37,178 nucleotides of DNA from Thraustochytrium aureum (lineage: Eukaryota), in NCBI GenBank assembly GCA_012862495.1, contig BLSG01000329.1, forward strand, positions 170,495 to 207,672, read 5' to 3'. The notes beneath the pieces were generated by a model. The model made no database searches. It saw only the letters and a program-made list of their open reading frames with translations, and had not been told where the DNA came from. The position numbers and the translations under genes are program-made. Below, in pieces: positions 3,778 through 32,740 of the stretch (positions are counted from its first letter, which is position 1; each line of letters opens with the position of its first letter).

Positions 3778-6700
3778 CTACGTGGAGACGCACACGTCGA
3801 ACGACGTGACTCGGCCGTTGGAGCAGCCGACGACGAGGCCGCCCTGCGGCCCGACGAGGTTTGCGAGCGCTGTTGCGCTCGTGCCAGGAAAAACCATGCT
3901 CGACACCAACTTGCCCGTCACTGGGTCGAAGACGTCGAGCGTGTTGTCTCGCGAGGCGGAGAGCACGAGCGGGTGGCCCCCTGGCGCGCGAATGACGCAG
4001 AGCGCGCTGCGCGCTGCGAGCTGCGCAAAGGTGTCGAGCGCAAAGAGCAGCACGCACCTGTCAGGGTCCCACACCCGCACCTTGTCGTATCGTGCCGTGG
4101 ACACCAGCAGCGCCACGCTGGGGCCCTCCACAGGCCGGACCCCGTCTACGCATGTGCTGTGGCCCTCGAGCACGCCTCTGCACGATCCAAGGGCCAAATC
4201 CCAGACCCGGATCGTTTTGTCGTCCGAGGCCGAGGCAGCGAGGCACATGCCTTGCGCACTGCCCAAGGTGCAAATGTCGTTCACCTTGAGCGAGTGGCCC
4301 TCCAGCGTGAAAAGCAGCTTGAAGGCCATGATGTCAAACACGCGAACGGAGCAGTCCGAGTCGGGACCCTGTTTGCCAGAGGCCGAGAGAGCCAGCAAGC
4401 TGGCTTCAGAGGCTCCAGAGATGCCTTTCTGCGCCTCGATCGACGTGATACAGCGAACCGGGTCCGAGTGCCCACGCAAGACCCCCCTCCTCTCGCGCTG
4501 AGCGACGTCAAACACGACAATGTCGTTCTCGCTTCCGTACAAGATCATCCCGTGCTGTTGCAGGCAGTGAATGCCGCCAGCCTGTCCCCCAAAGTCCCGC
4601 AACGTCAAAAGGTGGCAGCGCTTGTCCATGTCAAACAGGCCGATCGTCTCATCCCGGCCACCGGTGACAACGACGTGCCGACTTGAGCCAATTCGCAGCG
4701 AATTGATCGAGTTGATGCCGAGCGTGTGGCACTCGAGCGTACAGAAAGGCGTCCCCGTGACCGCGTCCCAGACCTTTACGGTGGTGTCTTCGCTTCCAGA
4801 AGCAATGAGCTGCTGCCCAGTCGAGGTCTCGGCCCCGCAAACGGCAGTCACCTTGCGGAGGTGCGACTTGACCCCGCTCACCTCTGGGGGCGTGCCCTTG
4901 GCCTCGTCCGCGACGCCCTGGGGCTTCTCAGTTTCGCCAACCCCAACTTCCCAGAGCTTGATATCGTTGTCGCAACCCCCCGAGGCGAGGAGATGCCTCC
5001 CGTCGTTCGTGTGCAGCGAGCACAAGGCGTGAATGCTGTTGGAGTGCCCAGTCAGAGTAATCAAGTCGCGCCCGGCCCGCGGCTCGTGGACCTTGATCGT
5101 GTTGTCGGCTGACCCGCTTGCAATCAGCGCGCGCCCGTCGGAGAGCCGCAAGCAGCACACGGACGACACCGACCCGTCGTGGTCGAGGCTGCGAACCTCT
5201 TCAAAGGAGGCAAGGTCCCAGAGCTTGAGCTTCTTGTCAAACCCGCCCGATGCAAGGAGCCGCGTTCCGTTGTCAAGTGTCGCCCCCGCAATCGCGTAAA
5301 TCGCCCCTTCGTGGGCCGCGGCCAGGACCCGCAAGCTTTGAAATCCGGCCTGAGCGTCGTACAGCGCAATGCTCCGATCGTCCGAGGCGGAGGCCACAAG
5401 CTCCTTTCCGCCCTTCATCTCAATGGCGCAGACTGCGTTGACCGGCTCAAAGTGGGCCGTCAGCGTGGCCTCCAGCTTGCCAGTCTCCGCTTGCCACACT
5501 TTGCAAGTCGCGTCGCTGGACGCAGTCACAAAGTAGACCTCGTTGCCCGACGGCCCGCCGCGCACTGAGCAGACGGCGTTCACCGAAGCAATGTGGCCCT
5601 CTTGGCCCGCGCCGCCGCCCAGCGCCCCGCTGAGCAGGCGGACCCTCTGCCACTTGTCGACAGAGTAAAAGTGCACGCTCGCGTCCACGAGCGACACGGC
5701 GAGCGTGGAAGGCTTGCCTGGCACTCGGGCAGTGCACAACGCCGTCACGATGCATGGAAAGTGCAAGGTCTTCTCTAGCCTCCCAGTGTCGACGTCCCAG
5801 ACCTTGACGTACTGGTCCTTTGACGCGGAAACAAGCAGCCGGTGCCCGTTCTTGCCCTCCAGGGAGCAAACAGACTCGACGGCGTCAGTGTGGCCTTTGA
5901 TCGTCGTCACCAGCGGCGAGTTGGCTGCGTTGAGAANNNNNNNNNNNNNNNNNNNNNNNNNNNNNNNNNNNNNNNNNNNNNNNNNNNNNNNNNNNNNNNN
6001 NNNNNNNNNNNNNNNNNNNNNNNNNNNNNNNNNNNNNNNNNNNNNNNNNNNNNNNNNNNNNNNNNNNNNNNNNNNNNNNNNNNNNNNNNNNNNNNNNNNN
6101 NNNNNNNNNNNNNNNNNNNNNNNNNNNNNNNNNNNNNNNNNNNNNNNNNNNNNNNNNNNNNNNNNNNNNNNNNNNNNNNNNNNNNNNNNNNNNNNNNNNN
6201 NNNNNNNNNNNNNNNNNNNNNNNNNNNNNNNNNNNNNNNNNNNNNNNNNNNNNNNNNNNNNNNNNNNNNNNNNNNNNNNNNNNNNNNNNNNNNNNNNNNN
6301 NNNNNNNNNNNNNNNNNNNNNNNNNNNNNNNNNNNNNNNNNNNNNNNNNNNNNCTTGAGCCATTTCTCCAAACGCCCTTCACCTCGTCAGCCTTCAAGGA
6401 GCAAACCTGCACGGTCTCGGCGTATTGCTTGTCTTGCACCGCGCTTGCATAGAGGCACGGAAGCGTCGACACGATTAGCGTGACGTGGGGAGGCAGGTTG
6501 TCCGCGTGCGGGAGCCAGCTCAGGTTGTCAGAGTCCACGAGCTGCTCCAGCGAGTCCAGGACGACGTAGAGCGGCTGCGCCGCAGTGGCCATTGGGAGAT
6601 ACTTGTTCTGAAAGAGCGTCACCAGCTTGTGAAAGTCGTCCGGGAGCTCGTGGGACTCGTTTTCCTCGTACACGCGGCCGATCTGGGCGCAGATGCTGTG

Positions 6701-8377
6701 CAACAGCATAAACGTGTCTTTGCTCGCCATCGTGGTCCCCAAGAAGCGGAGGACTACCACTGCTGTCTTCTCGAGGCCAGTGAGCGCCACTTTCGACAGG
6801 AGGGAGGTTTTCCCGGAGCCAGACGAGCCCTGGATGACCAGGCTGTTGTGCTTGGCTGCCGCGGTCTTGCAACCGTCGACGAGGGCCTCGCGTCCAATAA
6901 ACTCTCGGATCTTGGCTAGCGCGAAACGCAGGTGCTCCTGCGCCTCGTCAAAGACGTTGTCTGGTTCAAAGCTCTTGACTTTGTTGATCGAGCCCTCCGC
7001 GACCCTCGTCCACTGCGTCAGCACGTCGCGGAGGTATTTGGCATGCTCGGCGTGCTCGCGAGGGTCCAGACCGCCTTCCTTCCAGGGAACCGCGTACGTG
7101 AGGACCTCGCCGGACTGCGCCGCACGTTCAGTGATCTCGCCCTTGAGAGCCTTCAGCCGCTTGGCGGCGTCTGCGTCGCCCACATCCGCAAACCGCTTGT
7201 CCGGGACTTCGCCGCCGCCCTCCACAACCAGGTCGCGAACAATGAGCAGCGTCTCGTTCGTCCCGTTAAACCCGCGGTGCATCTCGTCTTCGGTCACAGA
7301 CTGCACAAAAGGGAGGTCCACCCTGCTCTTCGCGAGCTTGGGGTCTTCCTTGGCTAGTTTAACAGCAGCTTTGCGCAACATGGCTTGCATCGGCTCGAAG
7401 CACTCGGACCACCACTGCTTGGCACACCGGTTGAACACGTTGGGGTTGTACTGCGGTATGACCTCCTTGACAGGGCGCAGAATGTACTTTGGAGGAACCT
7501 GGTTTTTGTCGACGCGAAACCAGGTCTCGAAAAGCGGCTTCTGGGCCGGGGGGACATGGTTCATGAGAGATTCGAACAGCGCGGATTCAATTTCCGCAGG
7601 AAATGGTCGATATCCCTGCAGGCGAACAGAGTCACGCGGGAAGCGGCCCTCGGTGCGTCAGCGAGAGAGTTTGGTTTGCGACAGTGGCGGACTCGGAACG
7701 TACGTATTTATTCCCCAGGATCCCGACAAATTGAAGGCCGGCGCTCTCCTCTGTGCACCTGCGCAGTTCGTTCATGCACACAATAGACGTCTGGTGCGAC
7801 TGGCTCAGGCCGTCGTTGATTCCCCATCGCATTTCCGACAGGCAAAATTCCAGATTGCGGCTAAAAGAGGCGGGGTCAACGGGGAAAGAAGCGACCGAGG
7901 TTAGCAGCGCGTTTCTCAAACAAAACGCAGAGCGCTGGTTGTCCATTGCGGACTCAGGTCCGAAGCTCCAACTTACAGTCGAGACCGTTTCCGGAGGTAA
8001 GGGACGCAGAACGCAATGAAGGCGTCTCGCTCCCACTTGGTATCTGTAAAGGTCGAGCTCACGAAGAATCGAATCACGTTCTTGCGCCCCGTGACATCCT
8101 CCTTGCTCTTTGGGCGGCCTCGGAGGACGCGCTTCACCTGCTCTGCGTCGCGGACGTGGAGTCGTGGCGTCTTCACGGGCTCCCCGAAGAACCCTTCTTC
8201 GAAGATCTCGTCCAGGCCGTCGTCATTTGCGTTCCAGCCGGCTCCACCAGGGTGCGCTTCCTTGAACGGAAACTTTGTTGCCCGTGGGAAGATAGCATTC
8301 CGCAGCTCCTCGAGCTCGCCCTCCTGGTCAGTCCACGACTGCGCGGCCCCGGGCGAGGCCCCCGAGGCTGCAGTCAT
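3778..8377 (-). CDS. NWD1/TEP1-like STAND NTPase: DUF4062 + NACHT + long WD40 array; exons 8377-7977, 7860-7704 and 7615-(gap)-3778
   Basis: N-terminal RFFVSSTFTDTKWERD, EMRWG and spliced GNKY|GYRPFP (DUF4062-like). P-loop IQGSSGSGKTSLL, LRFLGTT and Walker B VVLDSLEQL. More than 10 WD40 repeats (GH...SAS.D..VKVWD). Introns 7861-7976 (GTAAGT..TAG) and 7616-7703 (GTACGT..CAG) restore the frame. The middle of the gene is interrupted by gap 5937-6353. Confidence 0.85.
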
Positions 8378-15662: not shown

Positions 15663-18607
15663 CTAGCGCGAGGCGGCGCCGCCAAAGCCCGGCGAACTCG
15701 GCCCCCACGCGTAGACCTGCTTATGCTGGAGCTCCTCCAGCTTGCGATGCTCGCTCACCGCATTGTCGACCACCTGGCGAAACAAGTCTGCGCTCAACAC
15801 CGATTTCTTACCCTGCACGCCGCCTCCGGCAGCGTCAGAGGAGGCCGTCGCATCCGCGTTCTTGCCAGAGTGGCCCTCCTCCAGGCTCCCAAATACATGC
15901 GCTTGCACGCTAGTCATGAGCTTGGCAATCTCACGGCCCGAAAACCCGTCGATCCGCAAAGCGGTTTCCTTGAGCATCGCACGCGTCACCTCTGACCGAT
16001 GCGCGCAAGTCTCCACAGATGCGGCGTAGTACTGCTGCACAAGGCGTTCGCGCTCCGCGAGGGACGGAAGGCCGAACTGAACGCTTTCGTCGATGCGGTC
16101 CACGACGGCGCGGTCGAGGTCCCCGGGGCGGTTGGTCGCCAGCACGAGCATGACCCTGGTCGACGCCGTGCCGGTATGGAAGAGGAGCGCCGTCAGCGCA
16201 TTGCGTAGCGCTTCGCTCACGTTGCCACCATCTCGCGACGCCAGGAAGGCGTCAGCCTCGTCAATGAAAAGGAGAACCCCGCGCGGAGTCTTGTTGGCCC
16301 ACGCAAACAAGTTGTGCAGCTCCGTGACCGCCGAGTCCTTGAGCGGGGCGACATCGGCGCCGCTCATGATTGCGTAGTCCAGTTTGCACCACTTGGACAG
16401 GTACCTCGCCACCATGGTCTTCCCCGTTCCCGGTGGGCCGTAAAACAGGATGTGACGCAATGGGGCTGCATTCTCGTGCGCGGCGCGCGTCGCCCGAGCG
16501 ACGCGGTTCAACTGGGCCGCTTTGGAGGGGGTCAGAACGACATCCGACATGAAATGCAGAAAATCTGACTCCGCGCGACGCCGTTGATCCTCTTGCTTGA
16601 CTCGCGCCTCTGCACGCTCAGGGCCGTCGAAGGCAGACGCGACGAGTCTCGCGCACCTGGAACGAACCACGCCAAATAGATCTGCCAAGGCGCGGCCAGG
16701 GCGCGACCCCATCGACGTCTCGCGGACGAGCGAGGGCCGCCCAAGGCGACGCTGCCAGTACGTCCGCCATAGCACCATGGCCTCGCGAGAGGCGTAGATG
16801 CCGAGCGCCAAGAGTACTAGAGTGCCAACCGCGGCCAGGACTGTGGCGGGGCTCCGCGAGAGTAGTTGTACGGCGGCCGTCGCCTCCGCAGCGCCAGCCC
16901 GAATGGCCGCCGCGGTATGCTCGCGCGCTTCCTCGGCCTGCAGACGCGCCATCTCGATGCGCAAATCATGGTTCTCCCGCTCGCGACGGGTCTCCGTTCC
17001 CCTTGCGCCTGCGCAGTCTGCTGGGCAGCTTGCGCCGCGAGCCGCGCTTTCTCTAGTTCGGCAGCCGCAGCCGTATCTTGCAACGCGCGGCGGTTGGAGG
17101 CCTCCTGCTCTGCCTGGCGCGCATCGACCTCTGCCTTGGCACGGAGCACCTCGAGCTCTCGCGCGACGCGGATCTCCTCCTCTCGCCGCACCCTCTCTAT
17201 CGTTGTGTTGTCGAGTTTGGCCTGCTTTGCAGACTCTATTTCAGCTAAAGCGGCGGCTGTCTTGCGCTGCTCATCGCCGCGAGCTCGCTCTGCGTCAATT
17301 TTGGCCCTCTCGAGTTCGACCTGTGCCTCGAGGGCGCGCCGCTTCTCTTGGGTCTCGAGTGCAGCCTGCCGATTGGCCACCTCGTCCACTCGGGCCAGCT
17401 CGGCGCGCAGCTCGGCCAGCTGCGCTTCGCTTGACGCGCCGTGCGTTTCGATCCGCTGTTCTATCACGCTCGCGTTGCGCCGAGCCTCTTGCGCGACCTC
17501 GTCCAGGACAGCAGCAAGGGCCGCGCGCCCCTTGGCCTCCTCGGTGGCCAAACCGGCCATGGCGCTCTCGAGCCTGTCAAGCGCTCGGCGCAGCTCTTCC
17601 AGCTGCGCCGTGTGTTGCGCGAGCGCCTCGGTGGCCGCGGCGATTTCACGCGCTTGGTCTGTGCTGGTTCCGCGGAGGGCTCCGAGGTCCCCGGAGAGCT
17701 GTGCCAGGGTGGCAGCGAACTCGGCCTGTTTGCCGTCGAGGACGCGGGCTTGCTCGGCAAGCACATTTGCGTTCTGCCTCTGCGCGTCGCGGGAGGCTTC
17801 GTCTGCTGCGGCTTGGCTCGCGGCCAGTCTCTCGAGGCCCTTGGCCGCCGCGTCGACGTCGGCGCGAAGCCTGATCGTGTCCGTGGCAATCTCTTTGTGC
17901 GAGACTGCTTGCTGCTTGATCTCGTCGCGGACAATCTCCTCTAAGCGCTCCACCTTCAGTTGCAGGCCATGGGCCTCTTTGCGGGTTTCGAGGGCCTCGC
18001 CCTGGAAGGCATGGAGCGACTGCTCGAGGCGCACGGCCTGCTCGCTTCGCGTGTGCGCCTCTTTCGCGAGCGTCTCGAGTTCGAGCTGTTTGGTCTGGAT
18101 TGAAGTGAGCGCTTCGCTCGCGTGTCGCGCAGAACTGGCCTCCTTTGAGGTCTGGTCAAGGTCGCTGCTGAGTCTCTCGATACGGTCATCCAGGCTGTGA
18201 GCAATGCGGGCGAGTTCTTGCGTCGCGCCGATGTTGGCCATGAACAAGCGCTCACTGTTGAAAACGTGCACTTGCTCAAGGATGAGGGGCTCATCGTCGT
18301 CAGGGCCACCGACCGCCCGCTTCTCAACTACACCGACAGCGGGGGGGAGGACGCTGGCGAGCTCCTGCGCGATGACACCGAGCTGACGCTTCCCGAAGAT
18401 AGGGTTGTAAAACTGCTCGAACAGAAAGTCGAACTCGCGGAGCTGAACGCGTTCGATAGCGTCCAGCAGCTGGCTCGCATTCGCCGCCACCACGTTCTCT
18501 TTGAGGCGAGCATCGCTGAATTCCAAGGATCGCGCAGCGCCTCGTCCGCCCGGCGCGCACGCGAGCCATGTCGCACCAAAAATCCAAGCACGGGCTACGC
18601 CGTGCAT
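15663..18607 (-). CDS. Fusion protein: hydrophobic leader + MYRF-type ICA (peptidase S74) domain + long coiled coil + ATAD3-like N-domain/TM + AAA+ ATPase (~981 aa after fixing a 1-nt frameshift near 16997-17002)
   Basis: N-terminal part: FSDARLKENV...QLGVIAQELASVLPPAV...VFNSERLFMANIGATQEL...LDDRIERL. C-terminal part: RRERENHD, TM segment, LGRPSLVRETS, HILFYGPPGTGKT, DYAIMSGADVAPL, LLFIDEADAFL, ATNRPGDLD..VDRIDE and GFSGREIAKL (ATAD3 signature). The second ORF has no plausible start of its own, and the ATAD3 N-domain spans the junction. Confidence 0.82.
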
Positions 18608-19096
18608 GGCTCTCTGCGAGCCGGCCTTGTCCTCGCGTCAGCTGCGTGCGGGCCACCCACTCGCTCGCTCGCTCGCTGCGCAGGTGGCACTTCGGCCTTC
18701 GCGCCGGTGTGCTCCCGTAAGTCGGCGAAGAAGCGGGTCTGCTGCTGCGCGGCGGATGGGGGCGAGCAAAGGATGTCGGCCGTCGTGTGGGACGCGTCCG
18801 TTGTCGTTCAAAAGACGCAGAGCGAGCAAGGAGGCGTTCGTGCGCAGGTGGAGAACAACTCGCTCGCTGCGCGCCCGGCTGGATCGATTCGGCAGGTTCG
18901 GATCTGCGCCGGGCGCCAGGTGCTGCGCAGCCAGGGCAGGGCGCCGAGGTCAACGGGCCGAGCGGGACGCGCAAGGCGCTGGTGGGTCTGGCCGGTCGCC
19001 GCGGTTGGCCTGCAGTGCGACGTCGCGGAGGCTGCTTGTCGCGCGCTGGCTTGTTGTTGGCTCGTTGCTGCGCTGGAGCGCCCCTTCGTGGAGAAC

Positions 19097-30800: not shown

Positions 30801-32321
30801 CACAGCCAGAATGCGTTCGCCGAAACTCACAGAGTCGAATCCTGCTCTGATGGCACTGCCGTTTGGAGGCCGGATGTTGAAGCCGATGGCAGTCACGATT
30901 GAATCGATGAGCAACACGAAATACACGAAGAAAGCGACGAGGTCAGCCTGAGAGTGGTCCTCTAGATCTACAGAGCCTTCGAAAGCCACGTTGATTTGTT
31001 TCTTGACCGCCTCGCGGCAGGCCACGTCGTGCACGAAGAACATTGTGTATGCAGACCAACACACCCCAGCCGTTGTGACACGCTCTTTGCGTTGCTGCGG
31101 AGTTTCCTGGCTGTCTACGATCTGCTCGAACACTCCGCCTCTGCCTGTATTCGCGACGAGGGATGAGATGTTCTTGACGCCAGCGGAGGAGCAGGAACGC
31201 GCTAGAGTCTGAAAAACACCAGTGTTGTCCACGAAGCCGAGTCGCACGGCAAGGATGCTTTCCTCCAAAGTTGTCCCATTCTTCTTCCCCGGTACAAAGC
31301 TTTTGGAGAGCAACTTGCCGTTCTCGTTTCCAAGAATGCTTTCGGACCCTCCGATGACTCCGCCCGAGCCTTGGTTGCCTTGGGTCCCCGGGGTCGGCTC
31401 ATTCTTAAGAAACCAGTTAAAGAATACGCGATCCGAGGATGCCTTGCACTCGTCTACAAAGCTTGACACGAGGACGAACGCGCACCGGTCGGTGAGCCGA
31501 ACGGCTTGTGTGCTGTCAAAAATTTGGCCAGACACGAGGTCGGTGAAAATCGCAAAGGTTTCGTTGACGGCTTCCACGGAGATCGACATGGATTGAGGAT
31601 CCCCGCACGGACCGCACTCTGGCCCTTCTATCGTGCCAAGGAGGCACGCGAGTCCAGGGCCTATCTGAGGCGACGCACCAAACTCTGCCCCGCGCGGCGT
31701 GGCGGGCGAGGGCGGCGGATCAGCCAAGTACTGGGATTGGCGAAATGCGCCGAGCATCTGCGGCAGGATGCTTTGGGCGCAGAAACTTTCGGTCTCGCTC
31801 AGCACGTCGAAGAAGAACGTGGTCACCGAGAGAACGACTGTTTTAGACGTTTGATTCAAGGCGGTCTCCACGGGCGCCAAGGGGCGCTGGGCGCCGTCCT
31901 TCAGTGCCGTCGAGATCTGCAGGAGATCTGCAGAGCTACACATCGCGCACCAAGGCACCGCTCCGACCTGGGTCGACGCGAGGGGCTCCGCGCCGCTCCC
32001 TAAAAACGCACGCGCTTGCAAAAGCGCCCTCAAGAGGGTCATCGAGATCCCCACATCCCCTTCCTCAGATTCGGGCGGGGAAAGAACAGCCCCGAGCCAC
32101 TCGCTTCCATCGCCGGCCTCGATGGCGTTGTCACAGGCCTCGACGCCCGTTGCCACCACCAGCACAATGTACACGAACGAGAAAAGCAGCGTCACCAGCA
32201 CCATGGCCAGCGCACAGTTGAGCGGCCGGCTGCCGACGCCCTCCAGCAGCACGACGGCCGGGTTGTTGGCCCGGACCTTCCAGCCCGTGCTGGCCCATTG
32301 GCTCGTGCCCACCGTGCTCAT
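27900..32321 (-). CDS. Large multi-pass membrane protein with Cys-rich ectodomain, ~7-TM block and C-terminal class 3 lipase domain
   Basis: 1473-aa intronless ORF. Lipase_3 motifs VFVSFRGT..NARTDL, VHRGF, TTGHSLGG, TFGAPRSGN, GDPIPKTP, YIHIGTEV and ADH. Seven hydrophobic segments lie at ~30585-29500. A signal-like MVLVTLLFSFVYIVLVVATGVEA starts at an alternative ATG at 32204. Confidence 0.88.
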   Translation of the reverse strand: MSTVGTSQWASTGWKVRANNPAVVLLEGVGSRPLNCALAMVLVTLLFSFVYIVLVVATGVEACDNAIEAGDGSEWLGAVLSPPESEEGDVGISMTLLRALLQARAFLGSGAEPLASTQVGAVPWCAMCSSADLLQISTALKDGAQRPLAPVETALNQTSKTVVLSVTTFFFDVLSETESFCAQSILPQMLGAFRQSQYLADPPPSPATPRGAEFGASPQIGPGLACLLGTIEGPECGPCGDPQSMSISVEAVNETFAIFTDLVSGQIFDSTQAVRLTDRCAFVLVSSFVDECKASSDRVFFNWFLKNEPTPGTQGNQGSGGVIGGSESILGNENGKLLSKSFVPGKKNGTTLEESILAVRLGFVDNTGVFQTLARSCSSAGVKNISSLVANTGRGGVFEQIVDSQETPQQRKERVTTAGVCWSAYTMFFVHDVACREAVKKQINVAFEGSVDLEDHSQADLVAFFVYFVLLIDSIVTAIGFNIRPPNGSAIRAGFDSVSFGERILAVTAGNSSDPLKVLNASNDEDNFTSLVPPDLDGFNDVYGECFQRLDAAPGELTNLLKFLSNIEECRGPTIQLEAGWIIQFVLFVFMLLVALLHVFWLVRGPRTPYSVALLALVLGNALLCNGAYVISGLSSANATSLMHLMFFNVSSPEVAQSAAVLEKYEAAAQSIGLAAIYIFHVFTMIELGARTEGEHSAEAEPEAAASKRLVENGSAQDHQSGIRTGSKRSVCRFPLSSHSPKSERLAAHFAVAAVWAFLRGFVAQFLLFCTMGFVPFVGWISAVRICLVDGVTPFPRCNSPDVDEMLGALPFGGMVLVTLCDAVMLYLASRETRLCKASLDELSFTSARRRQLLFYLKVLLSELAGVSTFIAAIMYCSMINVILGYNGHIAIAANSTDGGQGVRATYLGVSMMRTGVQYWSFGFFLIIFIASMGWLILLVPAQSSLGRLLLSTVSKEQLVVSFVPTEAHALGSSAAPHLHQQGSSGQGAFHGNAATTKVANAVLFDQQTFCLETQFINMMLTLSSYHVGPGQDGSGFVPPGWRVLGYISNEATDTHAWVVASDTKVFVSFRGTTSARNARTDLTLTLARLRWAGNGDAANYSPENSPVESAPVEQDLSRGPQHSKMLDPDVCTQRANALLVQYSQSVRSPKVHRGFLVAFRSVQDEVLRAVLKVFQDQPSRPRLIVTTGHSLGGGLAYLAGAFLGTAIPKALVQVSTFGAPRSGNFSFRRYVTMHTASCWRAVKRGDPIPKTPPRNPCSGSHGYIHIGTEVLLDLSGDVVVDPTLLEHTLLHRCKRGTLGADHKALTYMTAYLAFALGLQAQSRGAPGCKDEEKDEPSQNFYPKLWPNIRKRINDYVVLTLRSQGATLADLSLLPTSPENAESSAEDGADAETSGSPSSVVFTGARSGKPIDSAARRVAAMIGDFLRLEALADGEFERGNTVSPGQDAALFEAKGSRKQPPSDVVDETALVLE

Positions 32322-32740
32322 CGTTGCCGCTGCTCTGCGCGTCAGGATGCGTTGCTGCTCTGCTCTGCGTGAGACACTGAGACACTGACTGACTGTCGGG
32401 ACTCATGACCGACTCGACCTCCTCATGTCGAGAGTAGGTATGGAGTGAGGAGTCCTGATTGTGCGAGAGAGTGCTGTGCTGAATGAAGTGTAACTGAACT
32501 GACGAGGAGCTCGCAGGCGGATGGGCGGCGGATGGATGATGGATGGGCAGGCCGGCATCACGGCGGCTGGCGGTTGATGGCCCGCATGCAAGGCCGAAAC
32601 AGCCTTCTCGCAGCTGCGCAAGCATAGCGCTCGCTGGCCAGCGCGGCCTCGCGGCGTTGACGCAGTGCGACCTCAGCAAAAGCGTGGAACGTCCTGCCTC
32701 CCTGGGCGCCCACGTGCGCCCAGCTGCCAGGATTCCCTTG

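Follow-up and report, generated by a model that had tools for sequence, protein, structure and literature searches.

ATAD3, the family nearest to the protein described here, is represented by human ATAD3A, plant ATAD3 and Plasmodium PF3D7_0707400 (PF12037 + PF00004), and has so far been regarded as mitochondrial, present in single copy and unclear in its mechanism. In the available parts of a steroidogenesis phylogeny (PMC3790746) and of the PfATAD3 paper, ATAD3 is mitochondrial and, outside primates, single; the second of these describes a mitochondrial protein of 663 amino acids (aa), and the words "paralog" and "signal peptide" do not occur in the available part of its text. Human ATAD3A is described, in the accessible sections of PMC13249166, with its ATPase in the matrix and with an N-terminal coiled coil that touches the endoplasmic reticulum (ER). 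The ICA (peptidase S74) domain is known from MYRF and MrfA (PF13884 + PF13887; PDB 7DC3) and from phage tailspike and tail-fibre chaperones (endoNF 3GW6, 3GUD; T5 fibre 4UW8). According to the accessible sections of PMC8326128 and PMC3742443, MYRF trimerises through the helix following the ICA, trimerisation comes before cleavage, replacement of S587 or K592 by Ala abolishes cleavage (PMC8326128), and cleavage releases the whole transcription factor in MYRF and the fibre in phages (PMC3742443). Here we report that a 37,178-nucleotide stretch of the Thraustochytrium aureum genome (contig BLSG01000329.1, positions 170,495 to 207,672; the whole stretch is called the window below) holds one gene in which an ICA/S74 domain is fused to an ATAD3-like ATPase (Table 1).

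The encoded protein belongs to a conserved subfamily that is real and apparently undescribed, neither MYRF nor canonical ATAD3. It has in common with ATAD3 the C-terminal three quarters of ATAD3_N, a single transmembrane helix (TM), the LGxPxLVRE motif, a GGDVAP-type loop, Walker A and B, sensor-1 and arginine finger, and a predicted placement of rod and ATPase on opposite sides of the membrane. Unlike ATAD3, the family has a signal-peptide-like leader and an ICA instead of the first ~50-60 positions of ATAD3_N; its rod can reach twice the length, its TM is more hydrophobic, and it forms a separate clade. We suggest, with a probability of about 0.5, that these are type-I membrane proteins of the ER and secretory system in which a luminal trimeric rod seeded by the ICA would act as a spacer or tether, with the ATPase forming a cytosolic ring.

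Both halves of the fusion are known, and the domain string is already present in automatic annotations under generic names; database labels of family members read "ATAD3" or "26S proteasome subunit". Our literature search, which left subscription journals and bioRxiv supplements outside its range, found no description of the ICA-ATAD3 architecture and no paper joining ATAD3 with peptidase S74, and none of the domain accessions was matched in four supplementary files to a paper on the Aurantiochytrium proteome (PMC12221091). Within the literature searched, the suspicion voiced in an earlier note on this stretch, that the architecture was undescribed in print, is borne out.

That note had proposed both halves of the protein, and Pfam profiles match both: Peptidase_S74 (residues 31-91, E 9e-10), MYRF_ICA (residues 117-146, E 2e-11), ATAD3_N (E 1.7e-15; 57.5 bits against a cut-off of 25, with the downstream frame alone) and AAA (E 1.4e-23) all exceed the curated cut-offs. 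For residues 1-169 the best PDB sequence match is the MYRF ICA (7dc3, E 1.2e-8), followed by a phage tail fibre (8jov, E 2.9e-5). A PDB sequence comparison with 262 matches had no ATAD3 entry among the best 60. An AlphaFold model of residues 1-536, built on 63 sequences with a mean predicted local distance difference test score (pLDDT) of 77, shows the ICA with confidence (residues 41-160 mostly near pLDDT 90), followed by three long helices. Foldseek again places 7dc3 first (E 5.7e-9), with phage intramolecular chaperones next (E 1e-4 to 6e-3), and in the ESM Atlas residues 1-200 come closest to clusters of S74 proteins from bacteria and phages (score 0.90). The ICA domain with an intact S31/K36 dyad is thus confirmed by Pfam, PDB and fold searches.

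Between the end of the ICA and the TM lie about 446 aa. The model depicts this rod as all helix, with coiled coil supported for part of its length: heptad periodicity is clear for residues 118-350 (4/200 and 0/200 shuffles as strong), weak for residues 357-440 (20/200) and absent for residues 441-585 (191/200). The ~400 aa of heptad-like coiled coil claimed in the earlier note are supported in the first of these segments, and not throughout. The ATAD3-type part stands in its ATAD3_N region, TM and intact AAA module, but its ATAD3_N is shortened at the N-terminal end. A full-length model of the Hondaea homologue (seven-sequence alignment, mean pLDDT 59, predicted template modelling score 0.33) speaks to the helix-TM-AAA order alone.

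The gene is broken in the window by one base, and its two parts appear as overlapping minus-strand open reading frames (ORFs), one at 16817-18637 (ICA and rod; ATG start at 18607) and one at 15663-17240 (end of ATAD3_N, TM and AAA). Four sequencing runs (X1-X4) were compared with the window; X2 and X4 are without coverage of 16996. Contigs of X1 (DNA) and X3 (RNA), from separate studies, both carry an extra base behind 16996. The X3 contig (16717-17104) bridges the break with more than 100 bases on each side and the X1 contig reaches just 14 bases past it; each insertion is seen in one contig at a depth of 3.4-3.8, and the weight lies in the agreement between two studies. X2 and X3 are spliced RNA: from both a GT-AG intron of 121 nt, belonging to a different gene, has been removed, and it is because X3 splices where X1 shows no joint that X3 can be called RNA. 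As spliced RNA with the extra base, X3 places the transcript in frame at 16996. Read through with an X in place of the broken codon, the 981-aa protein can be aligned over its whole length with five of six homologues (44-48% identity, more than 940 columns), the best alignment to the sixth being limited to the C-terminal half.

The break is probably best explained as an assembly error or a strain allele. Programmed -1 frameshifting and a micro-intron were considered and rejected, both bridging contigs having one more base and no joint. That two separate genes, or a pseudogene, had been joined merely by the reader is highly improbable and already largely refuted: the window sequence does have a frameshift and no one contig covers the whole gene, but the in-frame DNA and RNA contigs come from two studies and the homologues are full-length single chains. 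The single ORF across 16990-17010 anticipated in the earlier note is supported accordingly.

The same layout is found, as judged from sequence, across stramenopiles and alveolates. A search with the ICA part returned seven proteins, all annotated S74 + ATAD3_N + AAA and including Hondaea fermentalgiana GBG25374. The AAA half gave 292 matches among longer proteins, and an iterated ICA profile detected the domain in 100 of the 120 of these that were listed and in 12 of 120 listed near-length matches. Named members come from Hondaea, Perkinsus olseni, P. chesapeaki, Amoebophrya, Noctiluca, Thraustotheca, Aphanomyces and a MAST-4 cluster, so that the search in stramenopiles proposed earlier found the architecture there (Hondaea, an oomycete; clusters from MAST-4 and diatoms are related) and in alveolates as well; apicomplexans and ciliates are not among the named matches, most matches carrying no name. 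In oomycete members the ICA is no longer detected by Pfam. With the Aphanomyces protein as query, two clusters lie close in the ESM Atlas, one largely of Oomycota (0.98) and one largely of Bacillariophyta (0.97), with plant and animal ATAD3 clusters far lower (0.83). An ICA-only profile (21 sequences) run against 1.84 billion representatives recovered 55 ATAD3 fusions in its top 150, the rest being mostly N-terminal fragments or MYRF-like and virus-like proteins, and among the metagenome loci screened 12 have the ICA and the ATAD3 core in a single ORF.

In the tree the window protein pairs with Hondaea with a support of 99 in the Shimodaira-Hasegawa-like approximate likelihood ratio test (SH-aLRT), which would place the source organism probably among the labyrinthulomycetes. 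Its nearest relative is CAK9100531, labelled Durusdinium trenchii, which sits in the window/Hondaea clade apart from dinoflagellates and has Cys at the catalytic Ser position; its label probably reflects a co-assembled contaminant.

In trees of the region from the ATAD3_N end through TM and AAA, 33 leader- or ICA-bearing proteins fall on one side and 16 canonical ATAD3s on the other (SH-aLRT 93 under LG+G4, 96 under C20-PMSF; rows thinned by hand, unrooted), and FastTree on 98 rows makes the same split (0.75). Oomycetes and dinoflagellates occur on both sides; on the canonical side they are represented by Symbiodinium atad3-a and a 583-aa Pythium protein. The N-terminal motif FDPxxLERAAKA, carried by 12/21 canonical proteins, is found in 0/82 clade members. 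Where near-complete clade members were scanned with Pfam, the ATAD3_N match sets in between profile positions 36 and 68 (at 102 in one member); in the canonical Pythium protein it sets in at position 14. The family has thus lost the first ~50-60 profile positions of ATAD3_N, and the ICA has taken the place of ATAD3's N-terminal segment. Median TM hydropathy is 1.91 in the clade (n=79) versus 1.44 in canonical proteins (n=21; p=3e-9, kinship ignored), and the ATPase motifs are retained in 66-82 of 82 clade members.

These observations are consistent with an ancient stramenopile-alveolate paralogue of ATAD3, which we regard as likely. Several points weigh against it. The canonical set was picked from the first tree, the ATAD3 tree has no non-ATAD3 root, and the two-sided membership of oomycetes and dinoflagellates comes from different species, not from both paralogues in one genome. 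The window protein, on a separate branch of an unrooted tree, is not scored as an orthologue of canonical mitochondrial ATAD3. Some clade members also have a leader and no detected ICA, such as the Cafeteria protein P0120.

P0120 is one of a group in the same clade (with P0088, P0094, P0109 and P0108) of 1180-1443 aa, most with leaders, in which no ICA was detected; P0108 has CBM96 and bacterial Ig-like domains where the ICA would be.

Secretory targeting of the family seems to us quite probable from sequence patterns. A hydrophobic leader is present in 37/40 Met-started fusions. In the alveolate subclade a variable hydrophobic leader is followed by a nearly invariant NWLxxCxxCxDQ peptide, its NWLxxCxxC start usually coming after 14-43 aa. 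All 38 of the 38 alveolate leaders with enough sequence have a small residue at -3 (A/V/T/G/S/I), and 37 have G, A, T or S at -1 (Q in the other); small residues at -3 and -1 are the signal-peptidase pattern, and a more hydrophobic TM is expected for ER insertion. Across ten related proteins, all seven Asn in the residue-467 column lie within N-x-S/T, with variable middle and third residues; six other conserved Asn columns in the same proteins have no sequon, and two post-TM columns have four sequons each. It is the leader, the lost N-terminal segment, the hydrophobic TM and the spread across SAR (stramenopiles, alveolates and Rhizaria) taken together that favour ER or secretory over mitochondrial targeting.

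Not all of the evidence points this way. The window protein's own leader is weak (best 11-residue hydropathy 1.46), the homologues' being clearer, and 51/63 plant canonical ATAD3s pass the same crude N-terminal hydrophobicity cut-off, which 0/6 of the tree-thinned set pass. The bulk sequon test does not discriminate, plant canonical proteins being enriched too, and with the TM relocated it is significant in one of three clade subsets (p=1.7e-5; others 0.2 and 0.57). The basic segment behind the TM has been retained (mean net charge +4.8 in the clade, +3.5 in canonical proteins) and the distance from TM to Walker A is unchanged (106 versus 107), both compatible with mitochondrial import. Together with the conserved LGxPxLVRE motif and the topology described for human ATAD3A in the accessible part of PMC13249166, these features would suit an additional ATAD3 in mitochondria, or a rivet between ER and mitochondria, in which the AAA module is imported into the matrix via a post-TM signal, the rod reaches the ER or another organelle, and the hydrophobic leader anchors the rod tip, to be freed by self-cleavage in dyad-bearing lineages. 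This is the reading nearest to the contact-site tether imagined earlier, and we consider it unlikely in view of the cleavable-signal geometry in 38/38 alveolate-clade proteins, the conserved sequon in the rod, the higher TM hydropathy and the loss of the canonical N-terminal segment.

The ICA resembles that of MYRF in fold, in its Ser/Lys(i+5) dyad (S31 and K36 align with S587 and K592) and in the GxIAQE and ExxFMxNxGA motifs, and both families share a coiled coil directly behind the ICA and membrane anchoring. Unlike MYRF, the window family has no Ndt80 DNA-binding domain (Pfam) or beta-helix upstream, whereas MYRF-like matches do have Ndt80, and its ICA lies at the N-terminal tip and is predicted to be luminal, where MYRF is type II with a cytosolic ICA. 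The dyad is also lost in over half of the family, and in an unrooted ICA tree of 115 columns the family's domains are not nested in MYRF-like ICAs, standing apart from these and from virus-like ones (93/94). "MYRF-type", as the domain was first called, therefore fits its fold and dyad but not its grouping. Phage ICAs, which share the fold, are C-terminal and discarded once the fibre has folded; the family's ICA is N-terminal and would stay on the rod.

Dyads were scored in 113 ICA-bearing proteins, 11 of them cut at the site. Among the 102 scorable, 44 have Ser+Lys, 29 Gly+Lys, 8 Ala+Lys, one Cys+Lys and 20 other pairs; all oomycete members have neither residue and keep the rest of the domain. 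The family conserves the fold together with its outgoing helix, the counterpart of MYRF's trimerising coiled coil. In the labyrinthulomycete clade eight of nine proteins covering the site have Ser/Lys, the ninth having Cys. Just 30 residues precede S31, with about 5-25 expected between signal peptide and cut site. With the dyad in 44/102 and little upstream to release, the simplest and more likely role of the ICA is to seed a trimer of the rod, not to cleave itself as an essential switch, and in the window lineage the dyad probably trims a few N-terminal residues after the trimer folds, as a side effect or a checkpoint of folding. The view favoured in the earlier note, that the protein is there for self-processing, is thus not upheld. 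An essential regulatory cleavage as in MYRF, releasing or activating an N-terminal piece or switching the machine on, could draw on the alignment with the MYRF dyad (accessible part of PMC8326128), on its retention in the labyrinthulomycete clade and on the 37 proteins that keep Lys where Ser became Gly or Ala. We hold it to be very unlikely, since Ser+Lys is missing in 58/102 scorable members, no S-D-x3-K occurs in 42/55 fusions of the wider search (some N-terminally cut), and the short stretch before the cut site has neither a beta-helix stalk nor a cargo domain.

Three further proteins carry ICA domains. P0297 and P0298 have a signal peptide and two ICA domains, the first degenerate and of ATAD3-fusion type, the second a Pfam S74 match, and no AAA module was detected in them. 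In P0383 the ICA follows a Gti1/Pac2 DNA-binding domain, so that the layout is like that of MYRF but the DNA-binding fold is another one.

In the arrangement that we favour, with secretory targeting, the leader would be a signal peptide cleaved on ER entry, leaving ICA and rod in the lumen and the AAA module in the cytosol. By analogy to MYRF and tailspikes, and in view of the heptad helix behind the ICA, the ICA may seed a trimer of the luminal rod, and by analogy to AAA+ proteins the AAA modules may form a hexameric ring. An AAA ring carrying a trimeric stalk is a plausible form, and the two symmetries could be matched by two trimeric stalks per ring or by trimers linking rings. Rod lengths from ICA end to TM cluster at about 190-204 aa (oomycete and related), 267-279 (dinoflagellates) and 339-454 (labyrinthulomycete clade). 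With a helix rising 0.15 nm per residue, a fully extended rod would measure at most some 30, 41 and 65 nm, respectively. The rod may therefore be viewed as a fixed-length, ATP-powered spacer or tether, whose job would parallel that of ATAD3, with a rod bridging two membranes and the ATPase on the far side, in a different compartment. SUN proteins, whose rods are trimeric, and Climp63 also have one TM that bears a long coiled coil in the lumen, and have no AAA module; the likeness is one of general layout, and no sequence relation is claimed.

A more specific extension, which we offer tentatively and hold to be doubtful, is that a mitochondrial ATAD3 duplicate was rerouted to the ER by exchanging its N-terminus for a signal peptide and a phage-derived trimerisation chaperone. 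It would then be a lineage-specific luminal ruler, a trimer-on-hexamer motor of the stramenopile-alveolate ancestor whose rod sets the width of, or rivets, a SAR-specific compartment.

The same topology and targeting evidence would also serve a cargo or quality-control machine, in which the luminal trimer chaperones or merely holds a secreted fibre (flagellar hair, extrusome or scale proteins being candidate cargo) and the AAA ring remodels membrane proteins or pulls on them. Phage ICA domains do chaperone trimeric fibres (accessible part of PMC3742443), the CxxC-bearing tip is invariant in alveolate members, and in some clade members other modules of extracellular type stand in for the ICA (CBM96 and Ig-like in P0108). 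Rod lengths fixed by lineage suit a ruler better than a cargo handler, in known cases the ICA works in cis on upstream sequence, and no cargo has been identified; we therefore think this reading rather unlikely.

The nearly invariant 15-residue CxxC peptide of the alveolate subclade (P0015-P0090) comes after the signal-peptide site and ahead of the ICA Ser. It persists in proteins whose Ser has changed to Gly or Ala, which suggests a tip with a structural or binding role.

Should the proposed luminal rod and cytosolic ring be correct, this second branch of ATAD3 (diatoms, oomycetes, labyrinthulomycetes, dinoflagellates and Perkinsus) would show the rod-TM-AAA module working outside mitochondria, a natural experiment on the role of ATAD3. 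The ICA fold would also gain a third use, staying on at the tip of a membrane motor as the seed of a trimer. The family offers natural cleaving and non-cleaving versions of the ICA, and can be tested in transformable thraustochytrids, diatoms and Perkinsus.

Table 1. Features of the ICA-ATAD3 gene, in window coordinates
Feature	Residues	Position	Strand	Remarks
Whole gene	1-981	15663..18607	-	981 aa once read through the one-base break; no intron seen
One-base frameshift in window		16990..17000	-	Absent from X1 (DNA) and X3 (RNA) contigs
N-terminal leader	1 to ~23	18539..18607	-	Probable signal peptide
ICA / peptidase S74 domain	31-146	18170..18517	-	Sequence, Pfam, model, fold search
S31	31	18515-18517	-	
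K36	36	18500-18502	-	
Helical rod	147-587	16848..18169	-	Heptad coiled coil to ~350, then ATAD3_N-derived helix
N-x-S/T site	467	17201..17209	-	
Single transmembrane helix	588-606	16791..16847	-	19-residue hydropathy 2.19
ATAD3 motif LGRPSLVRE		16719-16745	-	After TM
AAA+ core		16071..16451	-	Pfam, alignment, model of Hondaea homologue
Walker A		16416-16439	-	
Walker B		16251-16274	-	
Sensor-1		16125-16139	-	
Arginine-finger segment		16086-16100	-	
Helical lid			-	After AAA+ core, running to stop at 15663-15665

The neighbouring genes (DUF92/TMEM19-type, SWEET transporter, RCC1, EF-hand, anamorsin) give no hint of function. Elsewhere on the minus strand, the 121-nt intron spliced in X2 and X3 (2441-2561) lies in a peptidase M20 gene. 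A NACHT/STAND NTPase followed by many WD40 repeats (3778-7657, interrupted by an N gap at 5937-6353) looks, from its sequence, like one NLR-like protein. A 1500-aa ORF at 27900-32402, also on the minus strand, has several hydrophobic segments and a C-terminal Lipase_3 domain.

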